IMG/VR virus record: IMGVR_UViG_2548876865_000015
DNA: 5,061 bases
Direction: 5' to 3' (one strand)
DNA from: a virus
Lineage: Duplodnaviria > Heunggongvirae > Uroviricota > Caudoviricetes
The notes beneath the pieces were generated by a model that worked only from the letters and a program-made list of their open reading frames with translations, made no database searches and was not told where the DNA came from. The position numbers and the translations under genes were made by a program. Positions 1 through 5,061 of the stretch are shown in pieces. Positions within the stretch are counted from its first letter, which is position 1. Each line of letters opens with the position of its first letter.

Positions 1-1026
1 TTACTTGGAATATTTTCTTGGAATATTTTCAGGTAACGGGACATCAAGTGTTGGTGAAACTTTAACCTTCCTGTCATAGATTAGCACTTGCCCTTCGGTT
101 TTGTGACCAGAGAAAAGTTGCTTATCACGGCTGCTTCCTTCATAGTCTGAAATTCCTTTCGCCTTCAGATCATGAAAGGTGAAGTCGGTTAAAATACCTG
201 AAATTTTTCCAGCACGATTTCTTGCTTCTACCCACATTTCGTTAAAGCCTTTGTACATATATCGGTTGCCGTATTGATTGCTGATCACATAGGCAGATTT
301 TGGTAACTGTTTTGCTTTTTCGATCGCTGCCTGTAATCGTGGACTCCATGCTTTTATCTGTTTTTTTCCGGTTTTCCCTTGCTGGATGAATATCCCGTCG
401 TTTCCAATCTGTTCCCATTTCAGCGATAACACATCGGAAACCCTCGCTGCACACAGATAGGCAATTTCCATTGCGATAAAAACAGGAAGAGGTGCAACGC
501 TTAATACTGCCTGGTATTCTTTGTCGGTTACATATCGTTCGCGGTTTTTGGCCTTGAATTTACTTACACCTGCACATGGGTTAGCCTTGACGTACCCTCG
601 CTCATACCCCCAACTGTAAACACGGGACATACTGCTTTTTTCATGGTTGGCTTGCGTTTTACTCTGCTCCCCTCTTTTGTCCATGTATCGACGGATGTGT
701 TCTGGTTTTATGGAATCCGCTGGTACCTTACCGAATACGGCAAGCAACTTTTTTTGATGTTGCAGATAATCTTTTTGTGTTCTTGGACTAAGGTCACTGT
801 AATAGGCGCTGGCGAGGAATTTTTCCCACAAGCGACCGAATGTCATTGCACGATCGCGATTATTTACAGTTTCCTCATACTTTTTCCATAAAGCAGCTAA
901 ACCATCCTTGATGGCGGTTAGTGTGACAGATTCTCTGGATGTTGGTTTCCATACATAACTATATTTATTTGGGTATACATTTGGAGGTAATTTTTCGTGT
1001 TCAGGATTTTTCCTTCGTCTTCCCAT
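1..1026 (-). CDS. int: Phage tyrosine integrase (lambda Int family), apparently full length, 341 aa
   Basis: Complete ORF from ATG at 1026..1024 to TAA at 3..1. The N-terminus MGRRRKNPEHEKLPPNVY resembles the arm-binding N-terminus of lambda-type Int. Core signatures are readable in the translation: R195 (AARVSD), K218 (QGKTG), H285 (FTFHDLK), H308 (SGHKT) and Y317 (VLIYDRK), with the Tyr nine residues after GHK as in lambda Int. Residue 288 is Lys where box II normally has Arg. Confidence 0.9.
   Translation of the reverse strand: MGRRRKNPEHEKLPPNVYPNKYSYVWKPTSRESVTLTAIKDGLAALWKKYEETVNNRDRAMTFGRLWEKFLASAYYSDLSPRTQKDYLQHQKKLLAVFGKVPADSIKPEHIRRYMDKRGEQSKTQANHEKSSMSRVYSWGYERGYVKANPCAGVSKFKAKNRERYVTDKEYQAVLSVAPLPVFIAMEIAYLCAARVSDVLSLKWEQIGNDGIFIQQGKTGKKQIKAWSPRLQAAIEKAKQLPKSAYVISNQYGNRYMYKGFNEMWVEARNRAGKISGILTDFTFHDLKAKGISDYEGSSRDKQLFSGHKTEGQVLIYDRKVKVSPTLDVPLPENIPRKYSK
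4..30. repeat. Perfect tandem direct repeat, 13-bp unit in two copies (CTTGGAATATTTTC at 4..17 and 17..30)
   Basis: Read directly: ttggaatattttc at 5..17 and again at 18..30. It lies in the last codons of int (…PENIPRKYSK stop), next to where the att site is expected. Confidence 0.9.
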
Positions 1027-1229
1027 CAGATCGCACCAAAATTCGGCTCTACCTCGCGTGGTGGTAAAGTTTTATTGCAGGTAAATAGATCCCGGCTGAC
1101 AATCGGTTTGCCACTACGATTGGTATAGAACGGAAGCCCGTTTTCCATTAACCATTTTCGCTGGTGGCTTGCATATTTGCAGCCCGTTAATATTAGCAAT
1201 TCATCTTCGGTTAAAAATAAGCTGCTCAT
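1026..1229 (-). CDS. Excisionase-like small protein (DUF4224-type), 67 aa
   Basis: ORF from ATG at 1229..1227 to TGA at 1028..1026. Its stop overlaps the int start codon by one base (TGATG), and it sits immediately upstream of int. The stretch LTEDELLILTGCKYASHQRKWLMENGLPF fits the pattern I remember for the phage DUF4224 family. The Xis role is assigned by position and family, not shown. Confidence 0.65.
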   Translation of the reverse strand: MSSLFLTEDELLILTGCKYASHQRKWLMENGLPFYTNRSGKPIVSRDLFTCNKTLPPREVEPNFGAI

Positions 1230-1287: not shown

Positions 1288-3729
1288 TTAAAAATCAGCC
1301 TGACTCGGGATCAGTTTTTGCCAGATAGCTGAAACGTATTTTGCCTGGTAACGAGCGTCATCAAGTGCATTATGGCGCTCACCTTCGAATGGGATAGCAG
1401 TTCTGGCATCGAAGTCTATGGCTTTCCCCAGCTCAACGATTGTGCGTACATCGCGATCGTTGCAGTAGCGCCATGGGCAGGGGATACCCTGTCGTTCGTA
1501 TGAACGGCGTAAAATCACGTTGTCGAAGTTGGCCCCATTACCCCAGACCTGAACAAAAAATTCACCGGAGTTTTCGTCGATAAATTCCCGCAATTGCAGT
1601 AGTGCATCATCTAACGGGATTTCATCGGTCATAATGGCAGACTGCGCTTCACGTGATTGCTTCAGCCACCATTTAATGACGTCACGATCAATGACTCCGC
1701 CAGCAGTATCCAGATCGATGGTCTTGCTAAATTCCGGTCCCATATCTCCGGTTTGTGGATCGAAAAATATTGCGCCTATTGAGATAATCGGGGCATCGGG
1801 ATTTTTTCCCATGGTTTCAAGGTCGATCATCAGATGAATCCCCGCTCTGCTGGTGGATGTGAGCTTATGATGACCATTCACCTTAATTAAGGGATCTGTC
1901 GCCTCGCCAGTTTTATTATCGCTGGCGTGATGCTGATTGCCGCCAGGGTTCTCCTTGTGTGGATGTTCAGCGCCTTCCATTTCCTCCGGATCATTTTCCT
2001 GAACTTCAACCTGATTCTCTTCATCGAATGTTTCCTGGTATGTTGCGTCGCCCATCACCGCGCCACAATCAGGGCAGTTGCCGCCACCGCTCTGACCGCA
2101 GGCGGTGCAGACTTTTTCCGGTTCCTGTTGCGCTACTGGTTCGGATTGTTTCGTTTCTGGCTCGTTTTGTAACGCATTTGGGCTGTTTTGTTCCGCTTTT
2201 TGGTCGTTCCGTTCCGATTCATGCTGGTTCTGGTTCACAGAATCGCGAGTCTGGATCCCCTTGACCCATTTCGGATCATTAGGGTCGCTAATCCCCTCAA
2301 CAAATTCACCACGCGATACAGCAAGTAACTTATCGGCGTCAGGCTGGCTGATATTGGCTGCCTGCATAATTTTGTTTACTTCGTCAGCGGTGACTTTTAC
2401 TTGGTTAGCGGAACTCACCTGCGACTGAGCATCCAGCGACTGCGCGTTCTGGCCATGTTCAGTTGTATCCGGTTCCATTGTTTCAGTTGTTGCCTGTTCA
2501 CCTGCCATTGCGTCAGATGGTTGTGGTTTTTCTTCTTCTGTTTCACGCTCAGTAACCACCTCGCGGTTAATTTCTTCCAGGATATCTTTTTCCGGCGTAT
2601 GCCGGGCAGCTGTGAGAGTTTCCTTGCTGGGGTTCTCGTGATTAGTTTCCGTCAAATAGGCGTTGATATACCCCTGAAGGCGTCCCGGGTAGTGATAAAA
2701 TTCAGGGTGTGCGCTTCGGATAAGTGCAAAAATAGCGGCGCGGGAATAGTCCAGAATACCCGGGGTTGCACGAAGTGCTGCGGACCATTCTTTGAACGGA
2801 CTTTCTTTGTTCAGGACTACTTCTTTTGCGCGACGATAAACGCTGCCCGGAATTTCATAAATATTAAAATCCATCGGAAGTGTGGCTGCTGCAATCTCCA
2901 CATCCAGTGTGTCGAGGGTGTGTACTAAATTCGGATTGCGATCGGTTTTGTTCCCACCGCCAGCATTAGCACCGGAAGCCGTGCGGGTGATGCGTGAAAC
3001 ACGATTTCCTTTCATCCACTCTTTTGTCAGCAGACCCCGATCAGTGTAGTCAGCGTCCAGGTATGCTTCGAAAAAAGCAGTTATTAGTCCCAGGTCTGAA
3101 TTACCAGGATTAGGGAAAACTTTGTCAGTGTCACGAACCAGTTTGTGGAGGTCGCGAATCTCCAGCGAGTCGAGCAGACTGGTTTTATGCGAAATAGCCA
3201 GGGCAGTAACAGCCGGTAGTTCTTCAGCCCGTGCAATGTGTAATGCCTGGAGTTCGTCGCGTGAAACGTGCGTTACTGGTTTTTCGCTGCCGTGTTGAGC
3301 AAGCCAACGAATGGGCAGTTCCTGACCGGAGACAGGCAGAAGCATGCTCTCCTCAATCTCAGTCATGTCTTCGCCGTTGATGTTGGTATTGTCAGTGCTG
3401 GCTGGTTTGTCCTGAACAGAGGGGGAAGGGCCGATAAATGTCATTGTGATGCCATCTTTCCCGCCTTTTTCATAGCGGTTGCAGAATTCAGTATCAAACA
3501 CGCCTTCTGGCGGAAGGTCGTCAACAACGGGCAAATTGACGCGGACGGGTTTTTTAAAGTCGTCTTCATCATAATCGTTGTCATCCATTGCGGTAATGCA
3601 GCGGGAGATTGCAACAGATAATTTTTTTGTTGTAGTCCAGTAAAAACCACCTTTAATTCCCAGGCGTTTTCTTACTTTGTCATTTTTTGCTTCGCAATAT
3701 AGTGCAAATTCTTCTTTATCAGTGCTCAT
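1288..3729 (-). CDS. Large prophage nuclease: RecE (exodeoxyribonuclease VIII)-like N-terminal region, acidic linker, zinc ribbon, and C-terminal DEDDh (DnaQ-like) 3'-5' exonuclease domain; 813 aa
   Basis: ORF from ATG at 3729..3727 to TAA at 1290..1288, with a GAGG Shine-Dalgarno 9 nt upstream of the ATG. The three DEDDh motifs are directly readable in the C-terminal translation: Exo I IHLMIDLETMG (D636, E638), Exo II VWGNGANFDNVIL (D736), Exo III HNALDDARYQAKY (H786, D791). Residues about 385-620 are acidic and Gln/Glu/Thr-rich, and contain CTACGQSGGGNCPDCG (C541, C544, C552, C555). The N-terminal roughly 380 aa resemble, from memory, the non-catalytic N-terminal part of Rac RecE and the truncated Qin YdfE. 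Confidence 0.85.
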   Translation of the reverse strand: MSTDKEEFALYCEAKNDKVRKRLGIKGGFYWTTTKKLSVAISRCITAMDDNDYDEDDFKKPVRVNLPVVDDLPPEGVFDTEFCNRYEKGGKDGITMTFIGPSPSVQDKPASTDNTNINGEDMTEIEESMLLPVSGQELPIRWLAQHGSEKPVTHVSRDELQALHIARAEELPAVTALAISHKTSLLDSLEIRDLHKLVRDTDKVFPNPGNSDLGLITAFFEAYLDADYTDRGLLTKEWMKGNRVSRITRTASGANAGGGNKTDRNPNLVHTLDTLDVEIAAATLPMDFNIYEIPGSVYRRAKEVVLNKESPFKEWSAALRATPGILDYSRAAIFALIRSAHPEFYHYPGRLQGYINAYLTETNHENPSKETLTAARHTPEKDILEEINREVVTERETEEEKPQPSDAMAGEQATTETMEPDTTEHGQNAQSLDAQSQVSSANQVKVTADEVNKIMQAANISQPDADKLLAVSRGEFVEGISDPNDPKWVKGIQTRDSVNQNQHESERNDQKAEQNSPNALQNEPETKQSEPVAQQEPEKVCTACGQSGGGNCPDCGAVMGDATYQETFDEENQVEVQENDPEEMEGAEHPHKENPGGNQHHASDNKTGEATDPLIKVNGHHKLTSTSRAGIHLMIDLETMGKNPDAPIISIGAIFFDPQTGDMGPEFSKTIDLDTAGGVIDRDVIKWWLKQSREAQSAIMTDEIPLDDALLQLREFIDENSGEFFVQVWGNGANFDNVILRRSYERQGIPCPWRYCNDRDVRTIVELGKAIDFDARTAIPFEGERHNALDDARYQAKYVSAIWQKLIPSQADF
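1330..1848 (-). other. DEDDh 3'-5' exonuclease domain (protein residues about 628-800) inside the 813-aa CDS
   Basis: Motif codons map to D636 at 1824..1822, E638 at 1818..1816, D736 at 1524..1522, H786 at 1374..1372 and D791 at 1359..1357. Spacing and order match DnaQ-like DEDDh exonucleases. Confidence 0.8.
2065..2109 (-). other. CxxC-x7-CxxC zinc-ribbon-like motif inside the 813-aa CDS
   Basis: The translation CTACGQSGGGNCPDCG was confirmed by reverse-complementing 2065..2109. It sits inside the low-complexity linker between the N-terminal region and the exonuclease domain. Confidence 0.6.
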
Positions 3730-3822: not shown

Positions 3823-4014
3823 TTAAAATCCTGCCGGGATTTCGTTATTATCCTGGTGAATAACTTTATCGACCGGATAACAGTTGCCTGGAATTTTCTG
3901 TTCGGTTGCTGCTGCCATACATTCCTGCATTGTTCTGTGAACACTGACTGCAATATCAACTGGCTCTCCGGAAACAAGAAAAACCGTCAGAATAAGTGCA
4001 AATACTGGATTCAT
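3823..4014 (-). CDS. ydfD: YdfD-like small protein, 63 aa, with N-terminal hydrophobic segment (Qin YdfD is reported to induce lysis)
   Basis: I favour the ATG at 4014..4012 because it overlaps the upstream stop as ATGA and has an AAGGA Shine-Dalgarno 8 nt upstream; the longest ORF starts at 4068 but would overlap the upstream gene by 58 nt. Stop is TAA at 3825..3823. The product MNPVFALILTVFLVSGEPVDIAVSV... has a hydrophobic N-terminus. Identity with E. coli K-12 YdfD is recalled from memory and needs BLASTP. Confidence 0.6.
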   Translation of the reverse strand: MNPVFALILTVFLVSGEPVDIAVSVHRTMQECMAAATEQKIPGNCYPVDKVIHQDNNEIPAGF

Positions 4015-4199
4015 TGTGCACATCCTTTTGGCATCAGACGTAAACGGGCCAGCATTGAAACAATGCATACTTTATTTAATAACTCCCGTTCGTGTTTTCT
4101 TTTGTTAATGGCATCTTCAGTAAATACAGGATTACTGATAGTGACACCAATTTCAAAACAACCTTCAGACGTATTAACGTTTGGTAATAACGTTTTCAT
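4011..4199 (-). CDS. dicB: DicB-like cell-division inhibitor, 62 aa
   Basis: ORF from ATG at 4199..4197 to TGA at 4013..4011, with a GAGGA Shine-Dalgarno 7 nt upstream that overlaps the stop of the preceding gene. The product MKTLLPNVNTSEGCFEIGVTISNPVFTEDAINKRK...MLARLRLMPKGCAQ matches my memory of K-12 DicB (62 aa) almost residue for residue, and it lies directly upstream of the YdfD-like gene as in Qin. Confidence 0.7.
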   Translation of the reverse strand: MKTLLPNVNTSEGCFEIGVTISNPVFTEDAINKRKHERELLNKVCIVSMLARLRLMPKGCAQ

Positions 4200-4209
4200 T
4201 ATCGCGTCC

Positions 4210-4767
4210 TCAACAATGAATTTTTAGTAATTGCTCCACAGTCATATTTTTAATTGCGCTCCGGTTTACAAGAGTCCAGCCTTGTTTCTCCAGATAAAAC
4301 TGGAAGGTATCCAGGGTGCAGACCATTGCACCATCAGGAACGGTTTCAGTGAATTTGATATTGCCGTGTTCGTCGAGACGGATAACCAGGGTACGTCCGT
4401 CCCCGTGAATCATTTTGTCGGGAGACGGGGCGTTATTCTGGCGCAGTTCTTTCTCCATGCGATCGAACTCAGCGATGTAGGCTTCTTTAAATGCAGCGGC
4501 TTTTTTGCCGGTGAAACCCATCACCAGGAAAACGAAGCCGTTTTTGGTGATTTGGTACATAGGGAGTTTGCGCCCGGTTGAGTCGGTATATTCACTGGGC
4601 GAAAAATTTCGCTCAGTGAATTCCGCTGAACAGTCTAGACGTGAAATTTTTGCCAGTACATCTTTGTGTGGTTTCCGGAAATACTCGGCAACAGCTAAAG
4701 AGGATGTAACAGCACGCCCATTGGCGATAGTAATTTCAGGGTGAGAAAGGGCAGGGATAGTAGCCAT
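4210..4767 (-). CDS. Rha-family phage regulatory protein with an uncharacterised C-terminal region of about 80 aa; 185 aa from the favoured start
   Basis: Stop is TGA at 4212..4210. The Rha signature is clear: RAVTSSLAVAEYFRKPHKDVLAKISRL ... PMYQITKNGFVFLVMGFTGKKAAAFKEAYIAEFDRME. I favour the ATG at 4767..4765 (MATIPALSHPEITIANGRAVTSS) because GGAGG at 4780..4776 lies 8 nt upstream and Rha domains normally sit at the extreme N-terminus. Alternative starts are 4794 and 4782. The longest ORF runs in frame to the window edge at 5061 (283 aa) and may be what an automated annotation calls. Confidence 0.7.
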   Translation of the reverse strand: MATIPALSHPEITIANGRAVTSSLAVAEYFRKPHKDVLAKISRLDCSAEFTERNFSPSEYTDSTGRKLPMYQITKNGFVFLVMGFTGKKAAAFKEAYIAEFDRMEKELRQNNAPSPDKMIHGDGRTLVIRLDEHGNIKFTETVPDGAMVCTLDTFQFYLEKQGWTLVNRSAIKNMTVEQLLKIHC

Positions 4768-4797
4768 GATGGCAGCCTCCATGATGAATTTCATTAA

Positions 4798-4903
4798 CTC
4801 ACCACCAGAGGTAGCAATCTCATGGGTGGTGAGACGCACAGGGTTGCTACAACCGGTCATCATGGAACCCGGCCAGCCTTGCGGCTGCCCTGCACGCCCC
4901 ACC
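4798..4903 (-). promoter_or_regulatory. Candidate structured RNA leader upstream of the Rha gene, with mutually exclusive helices
   Basis: On the minus-sense RNA, GGUGGGGCGUGCAGGG (from 4903..4888) can pair with CCCUGUGCGUCUCACC (from 4843..4828) over 16 contiguous base pairs: 12 Watson-Crick and 4 G-U. The same pairs are C-A mismatches on the plus sense. The enclosed loop holds a 5-bp hairpin capped by a GCAA tetraloop (4887..4874). The 3' part CUCACCACC (4833..4825) can instead pair perfectly with GGUGGUGAG (4806..4798), which is the Shine-Dalgarno-like sequence 3 nt upstream of the ATG at 4794. Confidence 0.3.
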
Positions 4904-4931
4904 ATAATCTGAATGTGGCTGTGCATTACGC

Positions 4932-4956
4932 ATAAAAAAACCGCCTGAGCGCGGTT
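4932..4956 (-). terminator. Weak candidate intrinsic terminator (short hairpin followed by a U-run) on the minus strand
   Basis: Minus-sense AACCGC-GCUCAG-GCGGUU followed by UUUUUAUG. The stem has only 4 G-C pairs plus 2 A-U pairs and a 6-nt loop, so it is marginal. It falls inside the N-terminal extension of the longest Rha ORF. Confidence 0.25.
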
Positions 4957-5061
4957 ATGCGCCATGATGAACATCGGGGTAGCAATCCCGGCACCCGCTT
5001 TATGAGGTGCAGGTGCACTATAATTCCACCCGTTCTGGTTTTCAATAGCTACATTCAACAT

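Follow-up and report, generated by a model that had tools for sequence, protein, structure and literature searches.

We analysed a 5,061-nucleotide stretch of DNA from a Caudoviricetes virus (IMG/VR record IMGVR_UViG_2548876865_000015; the whole stretch is referred to as the window), in which the one long open reading frame (ORF), at positions 1288-3729 of the minus strand, encodes an 813-residue protein. The protein is a fusion of the non-catalytic N-terminal region of the Rac prophage RecE (RecE-N) with a DEDDh 3'-5' exonuclease domain, in which the catalytic residues are conserved, and its gene lies next to xis and int with no gene for an annealing partner. We propose that the protein would act as a 3'-5' DNA exonuclease of the early-left (pL) operon, built on a RecE-type scaffold, and not as one half of a RecET-type pair; taken as a whole package, we hold this reading with about equal belief and doubt.

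The C-terminal residues 632-813 are a bona fide DEDDh exonuclease domain. Residues 632-803 are matched by Pfam PF16473 (Rv2179c-like) with an E-value of 3.1e-66 and 222.9 bits, the cutoff being 27, over profile positions 2-177 of 177, which makes the domain a full-length, high-scoring member of that family; this match and that of PF06630 in the N-terminal region are both far above chance. A sequence-only reading of this DNA had proposed a DEDDh/DnaQ-like fold here in place of the PD-(D/E)XK nuclease of RecE, and had placed the five catalytic residues in order along the chain; the translation of the ORF has all of them at those positions, in the contexts MIDLETMG (from residue 634), NGANFDNVIL (731) and HNALDDA (786), the Pfam match is of the expected kind, and positions 604-877 of the NCBIfam RecE model NF007259 are left unmatched. 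Sequence searches of the PDB returned T4 DexA (8KEL/8KEN) as the sole matches. An AlphaFold2 model of the domain, built on 39 homologues, had a predicted local distance difference test score (pLDDT) of 85 and a predicted template modelling score (pTM) of 0.82, and its best Foldseek match was also DexA (E 4e-11, template modelling score 0.72), followed by RNase T (E 1e-8), which the earlier reading had suggested as a structure for comparison, by Orn/REXO2 and by Cap18. Residues D636, E638, D736, H786 and D791 align with D7, E9, D119, H186 and D191 of DexA. Conservation was counted in 77 homologues (31 long-form and 46 stand-alone) drawn from 80 loci in other species, and is near-complete at the five positions (Table 1). 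Catalysis itself is predicted from these residues and from the modelled fold.

The remainder of the protein is RecE sequence almost up to this domain. BLASTP against K-12 RecE aligned residues 58-615 with RecE 50-591 at 58% identity, and NF007259 matched residues 1-616 at model positions 1-603 of 877; the score of 944.4 bits is under the equivalog cutoff of 1269 because the last ~270 model positions find no counterpart. The sequence-only reading had recognised a RecE-like N-terminus, which the PF06630 match bears out, but had put its extent at about 380 residues, well short of the ~615 given by BLASTP and NF007259. Similarly, the 235-residue linker that it described is acidic and does contain a CxxC-x7-CxxC motif, but it is not a separate linker, since both of these features, the acidity and the zinc knuckle, fall within the BLASTP alignment with RecE. 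Within residues 381-615, Asp and Glu make up 22% and Lys and Arg 7%, and the knuckle reads CTACGQSGGGNCPDCG from residue 541, its RecE counterpart being CNACGQTGGDNCPDCG. The knuckle is restricted to Escherichia-type members; 4 of 30 homologues of the long form have it, as do 5 of 58 cluster representatives.

At the DNA level, homology to Rac recE amounts to 92% in a 454-bp patch (window 3391-2938) and 75% at 2538-1886, and ends at position 1886, which is codon 615 of the gene and codon 591 of recE. The PD-(D/E)XK domain (RecE ~600-866) was not detected, with no BLASTP alignment past RecE 591 and no match to PF12684; the protein is not an end-to-end RecE. The crystallised nuclease domain of RecE begins at residue 606, 15 residues past the end of homology. 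The exchange point would thus coincide with a domain boundary of RecE (PMC11611040). As judged from the alignments, the non-catalytic part of RecE is retained whole and the catalytic head alone is replaced. We also modelled residues 1-420 from an alignment of 56 cluster representatives; the mean pLDDT of 84.7 and the pTM of 0.45 describe a confident, multi-domain prediction, in which residues 398-420 have pLDDT values below 50. No significant match to this model was found in BFVD, and the module, though conserved and predicted to fold, resembles no known fold.

Rac RecE shares with the window protein the PF06630 region, the acidic tract and the knuckle, and its gene occupies the same early-left operon slot upstream of xis and int. 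Unlike RecE, the window protein lacks the whole PD-(D/E)XK domain (RecE 606-866), no recT follows its gene, and its predicted polarity is 3'-5', whereas that of RecE is 5'-3'. On sequence grounds we place it outside the RecE equivalog family, because it differs in the catalytic domain, scores under the cutoff and is without a recT partner. The name exodeoxyribonuclease VIII, which the earlier reading had expected for such proteins and which we found as the label in several phage records, implies a 5'-3' RecE-type nuclease that is absent from the protein. A corrected label is of importance to the annotation of prophages and to anyone searching phages for recombineering enzymes.

The lack of an annealing partner, already claimed from the window, extends to its relatives. 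No RecT-, Bet- or Erf-like ORF is present in the window by the ORF list and profile searches. The annotation of the whole 46 kb of the intact phage Tritos includes no annealase, Exo, Gam or SSB, and there is accordingly no RecT/Bet-like gene beside the exonuclease in this intact element. Among 30 long-form loci, none of the 106 upstream ORFs (crude ORF calling, same strand, at least 120 residues) matched RecT, ERF, Rad52, AAA_24, SSB or Gam. The domains that recur in these ORFs are of the repressor helix-turn-helix type, and therefore a short early-left operon is indicated. Downstream, most long-form loci have a xis-sized and then an int-sized ORF, or an int-sized ORF alone, on the same strand; in the window, xis (DUF4224) and int follow the exonuclease gene directly, as the sequence-only reading had stated. 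The gene order of Tritos is cI, three small ORFs, dicF, dicB, ydfD, exonuclease, xis and int, and a 99.8%-identical chromosomal copy has the same arrangement. The source prophage is best explained as a lambdoid of the Qin/mEp460/Tritos type, in which the exonuclease is the last large gene of the pL operon before xis and int.

Tritos contains 9 Chi sites on the top strand and 2 on the bottom strand, where ~1.3 would be expected from base composition. In the relevant passages of Zheng, Casjens, Davidson, Amundsen & Smith (2025, PMC12315714), 22% of lambdoid phages are described as having no Rec module and abundant Chi, and as being RecBCD-dependent, and Tritos fits this class. The same passages report sporadic DnaQ-type nuclease genes near int, excluded from the Rec modules, and accept DnaQ-type nucleases as members of a Rec module if packed beside other Rec genes, as in phage epsilon34; in these passages the int-proximal genes are given neither a RecE-N fusion nor an assigned function. 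Carriers of the window gene probably rely on host RecBCD and RecA, because no annealase, SSB or Gam is found and because Tritos, the one intact carrier examined, is rich in Chi.

The window itself has two Chi sites (GCTGGTGG) on the same strand, at 1849-1856 (+) within the exonuclease gene and at 1160-1167 (+) within xis. The former is 37 nt from the breakpoint of RecE homology and has the same gene offset in Tritos. We considered a Chi-driven exchange at the breakpoint and rejected it; RecBCD-stimulated exchange occurs on the other side of Chi, the breakpoint is on its 3' side, and the proximity is treated as coincidence.

The same operon context could also belong to a recombination exonuclease whose partner, either a host protein or a small phage annealase, has escaped recognition, that is, to a RecE analogue of reversed polarity. 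The gene does occupy the slot of recE-recT in Rac, the RecE scaffold has been kept under conservation, the epsilon34 example in the passages cited above shows DnaQ-type nucleases admitted to Rec modules, and a few stand-alone homologues adjoin SSB, ERF or AAA_24 genes. We nevertheless think this improbable to a marked degree, as neither the same-strand upstream ORFs of at least 120 residues in 30 long-form loci nor Tritos provide an annealase or SSB, resection in the 3'-5' direction leaves 5' tails that are unused by the known annealase or RecA loading pathways, and the int-proximal DnaQ genes are explicitly kept outside the Rec modules in the part of Zheng et al. that deals with them. The upstream neighbours of the stand-alone loci (L046-L110) were DUF551 (five loci), SSB (three), DUF2303 and VRR_NUC (two each), ERF and AAA_24 (one each), and the link between the stand-alone versions and recombination genes is a loose one only.

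In light of these data, we propose the following mechanism for a pL-encoded 3'-5' DNA exonuclease. The protein would be made from pL after induction or infection and would consist of two modules. The first (residues 1-615), which also makes up the first two thirds of Rac RecE, would be a non-catalytic scaffold with an acidic disordered tail, supplying oligomerisation or targeting; the second (residues 632-813) would be a DEDDh exonuclease, closest to DexA, in the place of the PD-(D/E)XK 5'-3' nuclease of RecE, with recT absent. Nucleotides would be removed from free 3' DNA ends, either of single strands or of 3' tails, by two-metal catalysis through D636, E638, D736, H786 and D791. DNA 3' ends are suggested as the substrate on two grounds, namely that DexA, the closest relative, degrades DNA and that the scaffold comes from a double-stranded DNA exonuclease. 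The protein would not serve as the nuclease partner of an annealase.

Several points weigh against this proposal. We infer expression from pL from gene position alone, and the scan of upstream ORFs used crude ORF calling with a length threshold. In addition, 3'-5' exonucleases usually inhibit recombination and do not promote it, according to the passages of Zheng et al. on these enzymes (PMC12315714), and a pro-recombination role is for this reason not obvious. Related DEDDh exonucleases on mobile elements, either stand-alone or with auxiliary domains, act in anti-phage defence (PMC12153337, PMC13344964). Finally, PF16473 is named after an exoribonuclease, Rv2179c, and judged from this family assignment an RNA substrate is possible.

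The last point leads to an exoribonuclease like Rv2179c that would act on 3' ends of phage or host RNA, for instance in the processing or turnover of the early-left transcript, which carries dicF and dicB in relatives. The best Pfam family has the full name '3'-5' exoribonuclease Rv2179c-like', the modelled fold is strongly matched by RNase T, Orn and REXO2, and 3'-5' exoribonuclease is a frequent name in the databases searched. Yet both the nearest PDB structure and the nearest PDB sequence are those of the DNA exonuclease DexA, the scaffold is common to a double-stranded DNA exonuclease, and little can be read from the family name, as DEDDh enzymes often act on DNA and RNA alike; we regard an exoribonuclease role as quite improbable. 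The window protein also differs from the stand-alone Rv2179c-like versions in its 615-residue N-terminal extension, and the fused domains form a clade of their own.

The main rival to a pL-encoded DNA exonuclease is an exonuclease of anti-phage defence, directed either to the 5-hydroxymethylcytosine (5hmC) DNA of T-even phages, as in HREX, or to the 3' ends of RNA-phage genomes, as in TONDO, with RecE-N as the auxiliary part. DexA, the closest solved structure, is itself from T4, and EcD, an E. coli homologue of DexA, degraded the 5hmC-containing genome of T4 and protected cells (Kang et al. 2025, PMC12153337). Moreover, ISG20-like DEDDh exonucleases from prophages and plasmids, joined to unrelated auxiliary domains, block MS2 and Qbeta (Santos et al. 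2026, PMC13344964). Of the complete E. coli genomes 75% carry the gene, frequently more than once, and PADLOC gave a weak match to a CRISPR-associated DEDDh model (E 1.3e-4). The comparison with each of these systems is less favourable. The window domain shares the DEDDh fold and the aligned catalytic residues with DexA (exonuclease A), but its identity is 20-28%, it is without the DexA-specific insertions, and DexA is a 227-residue stand-alone protein of a virulent phage. The proposed 5hmC-recognition residues of HREX are absent, as W152 of DexA corresponds to C756 and D169 to K769, and nearly all of the 77 clade members have K or R at the latter. In the residue pair that forms the DexA tetramer and is lost in the defensive, EcD-type form, S87 aligns with P705 and D90 with D708, in a loop where the alignment is uncertain by one residue.

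For EcD we used a proxy, a 189-residue MIDTET.. protein with A78 and a matching 3' end, reached from the published primers through a 17-mer scan of viral contigs, and we infer that it is EcD. Fold, catalytic residues and E. coli origin are common to EcD and the window protein, whereas the proxy is a stand-alone paralogue that is only 37% identical to the window domain and keeps the Trp and an acidic residue (E) at the two recognition positions. Judged from the aligned sequences, membership of HREX fails on its defining residues. With TONDO the window protein shares the general pattern only, a DEDDh domain with an auxiliary domain on a prophage, and the TONDO screen took proteins of fewer than 500 residues. 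The position of the gene at the end of the pL operon in plaque-forming phages also speaks against defence, since λ-like repression would be expected to silence it in a lysogen, and no defence genes flank it. A defence role is, in our estimation, unlikely.

The sequence-only reading had described the protein as a chimera and a polarity-swapped RecE-like exonuclease; as a chimera it is not an unusual one. We searched 5426 complete E. coli genomes with the DNA of the DEDDh domain and the junction (1288-2000, at least 80% coverage) and found it in 4052 of them (75%), with up to 8 copies per genome, which places it among the commonest E. coli prophage genes. Hundreds of E. coli contigs encode an identical 813-residue protein, for which the architecture PF06630+PF16473 is precomputed and which is named exonuclease or 3'-5' exoribonuclease; the RefSeq name for the gene is '3'-5' exonuclease' or 'exonuclease', and the full-length counterpart family in PHROGs is phrog_2082. 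The fusion is therefore already catalogued in Pfam, PHROGs and RefSeq; our literature searches found no functional study of a RecE-N/DEDDh fusion, in agreement with the earlier statement that its function is not established.

In two of three large protein searches, near-identical E. coli entries took up the output and no sequence diversity was gained. The homologue scan was made with one genome per species, which resulted in the 80 loci. Long forms with a RecE-like N-terminus, of 640-851 residues, account for ~31 of these and are found in Escherichia, Enterobacter, Klebsiella, Citrobacter, Kluyvera, Pluralibacter, Kosakonia and other genera. Stand-alone versions of 180-200 residues (~46 loci) have a broader range in Gammaproteobacteria, where relatives at 55-90% identity are found in prophage early regions. 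In a neighbour-joining tree of the DEDDh domains, the 31 fused copies all group in a single clade that is separate from the 46 stand-alone ones. Because this single clade extends across genera, the fusion looks, from its sequences, like an old, established protein family and not like a recent polarity swap of RecE or an accident.

These data also bear on whether the gene is a non-functional fusion remnant of prophage decay. In favour of this, numerous entries in the databases are fragmentary, there are odd partial fusions (P0061, P0072 and P0244), and int beside the 99.8%-identical copy is annotated as frameshifted. Against this, the 813-residue ORF is intact on hundreds of contigs and present in plaque-forming phages, the catalytic residues have been kept in genera whose domains share 50-60% identity, the fused domains make up one clade, and both modules are predicted to fold with confidence. 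We consider a remnant extremely improbable.

The K-12 protein YdfE, from the Qin slot after ydfD, was considered as a possible N-terminal fragment of the window protein, but BLASTP showed no significant similarity and this candidate was dropped. The ydfE pseudogene of K-12 Qin (L112:4079-4999) is a different gene in the slot after ydfD, interrupted by IS2. YdfE-type N-termini (PF27430) are joined to partial DEDDh domains without an Exo I motif in P0061 and P0072.

The RecE-type scaffold carries more than one kind of catalytic head. Among cluster representatives at 50% identity, RecE-N was joined to a RecE-type nuclease in ~23, to a DEDDh domain in ~17, to a phrog_7838-type head in 9, to phrog_26058 in 11 and to a RecT fragment in 1. 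The phrog_2489/phrog_7838 head (P0249, P0300, P0319, P0321, P0323, P0337, P0346, P0367 and P0385) has ~215 residues and is annotated as 'exonuclease', with no Pfam family assigned. Its motifs presumably recall those of Rad52-type annealases. A Pfam match to Rad52_Rad22 was below threshold (E 0.012) and the PDB profile search gave no match, and we did not accept the head as Rad52-like beyond treating it as a lead. The phrog_26058 tail is found in P0248, P0305, P0315, P0339, P0342, P0354, P0355, P0359, P0361, P0381 and P0388; this group may be the 'RecE-2' proteins without a nuclease domain that are mentioned in a passage of Zheng et al. (PMC12315714). In P0244, RecE-N is in frame with a 5'-truncated RecT (phrog_148).

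This survey suggests, as a lead and not as a result, that the so-called 'dispensable' RecE-N can be reused as a module. These first two thirds of the RecE protein would then be a conserved, folded unit joined to unrelated catalytic heads, and the shared module offers a concrete route to studying a region of RecE whose function has been unexplained for decades. It is conceivable, though unlikely, that RecE-N is a portable delivery module that brings DNA-end effectors to a common target (DNA ends, the replisome or RecBCD), and that in the Chi-rich lambdoids with no Rec module the DEDDh version trims 3' tails for RecBCD loading. If so, the use of host recombination by these phages would be actively assisted. 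A defence factor or a RecBCD/Chi helper would each bear on a current debate, and the evidence so far favours neither role.

The features of the window are collected in Table 1.

Table 1. Features of the exonuclease gene and its neighbours in the window.
Feature	Position	Strand	Basis or conservation
Whole gene, RecE-N/DEDDh exonuclease fusion, 813 aa, ATG start	1288..3729	-	ORF list
Residues 1-615, homologue of the non-catalytic part (N-terminal 591 residues) of Rac RecE	1885..3729	-	NCBIfam, BLASTP, DNA homology
Pfam PF06630 Exonuc_VIII match, residues 57-189, E 3.7e-36	3163..3561	-	Pfam
Three predicted folded blocks: 1-100 alpha/beta, ~120-240 helical, ~270-396 helical	2542..3729	-	Model
Residues 397-631, acidic low-complexity tract, shared with RecE to residue 615; modelled as disordered at 398-420 (limit of model)	1837..2541	-	Composition, pLDDT, RecE alignment
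CxxC-x7-CxxC knuckle, residues 541-556, inherited in the RecE lineage	2062..2109	-	Sequence, RecE alignment
DEDDh (DnaQ-like) 3'-5' exonuclease domain, residues 632-813 and stop	1288..1836	-	Pfam PF16473, DexA match, model
Exo I motif, D636 and E638	1816..1824	-	29-30/31 long-form, 41/46 stand-alone; rest mostly alignment gaps
Exo II motif, D736	1522..1524	-	77/77 homologues
Exo III motif, H786-x4-D791	1357..1374	-	H 77/77, D 75/77 homologues
xis, excisionase-like, DUF4224, phrog_1266, directly downstream of the exonuclease gene	1026..1229	-	Profile matches
int, tyrosine integrase, intact 341-aa ORF	1..1026	-	Profile matches
ydfD-like DUF1482 gene and dicB, upstream operon neighbours	3823..4199	-	Profile matches, annotation of relatives
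Rha/Ash-type ORF, 283 aa, mechanical call	4210..5061	-	ORF list and Pfam

A search for promoter-like sequences gave 8 matches in the window, no excess over shuffled sequence (mean 7.1). In the 99.8%-identical chromosomal copy, int (L001:11976-13026) is a frameshifted pseudogene in RefSeq whose end adjoins a tRNA-Ser gene, likely the attachment site.

Beyond the dicB end of the operon the window departs from its relatives. Near-identical relatives match it up to position 4224 only, and upstream of dicB they continue with dicF, ydfC, ydfB and ydfA; no Rfam match to DicF was found in the window. The 283-residue Rha/Ash ORF is probably not a single real gene. Its 5' part contains Rfam matches to the C4 antisense RNA (77.9 bits) at 4822-4909 (-) and to the small RNA isrK (64.7 bits) at 4934-5010 (-), and the region 4210-5061, with the order small RNAs, Ash/Icd-like part and Rha/Ant domain, looks like an anti-repressor module of the P1 immI-like or Gifsy isrK type. 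The window prophage appears to be a variant in which the dicF-ydfABC segment has been exchanged for this module (window 4225-5061). Among the matches listed, one genome only, that of strain A19, covers the whole window, at 90% identity.

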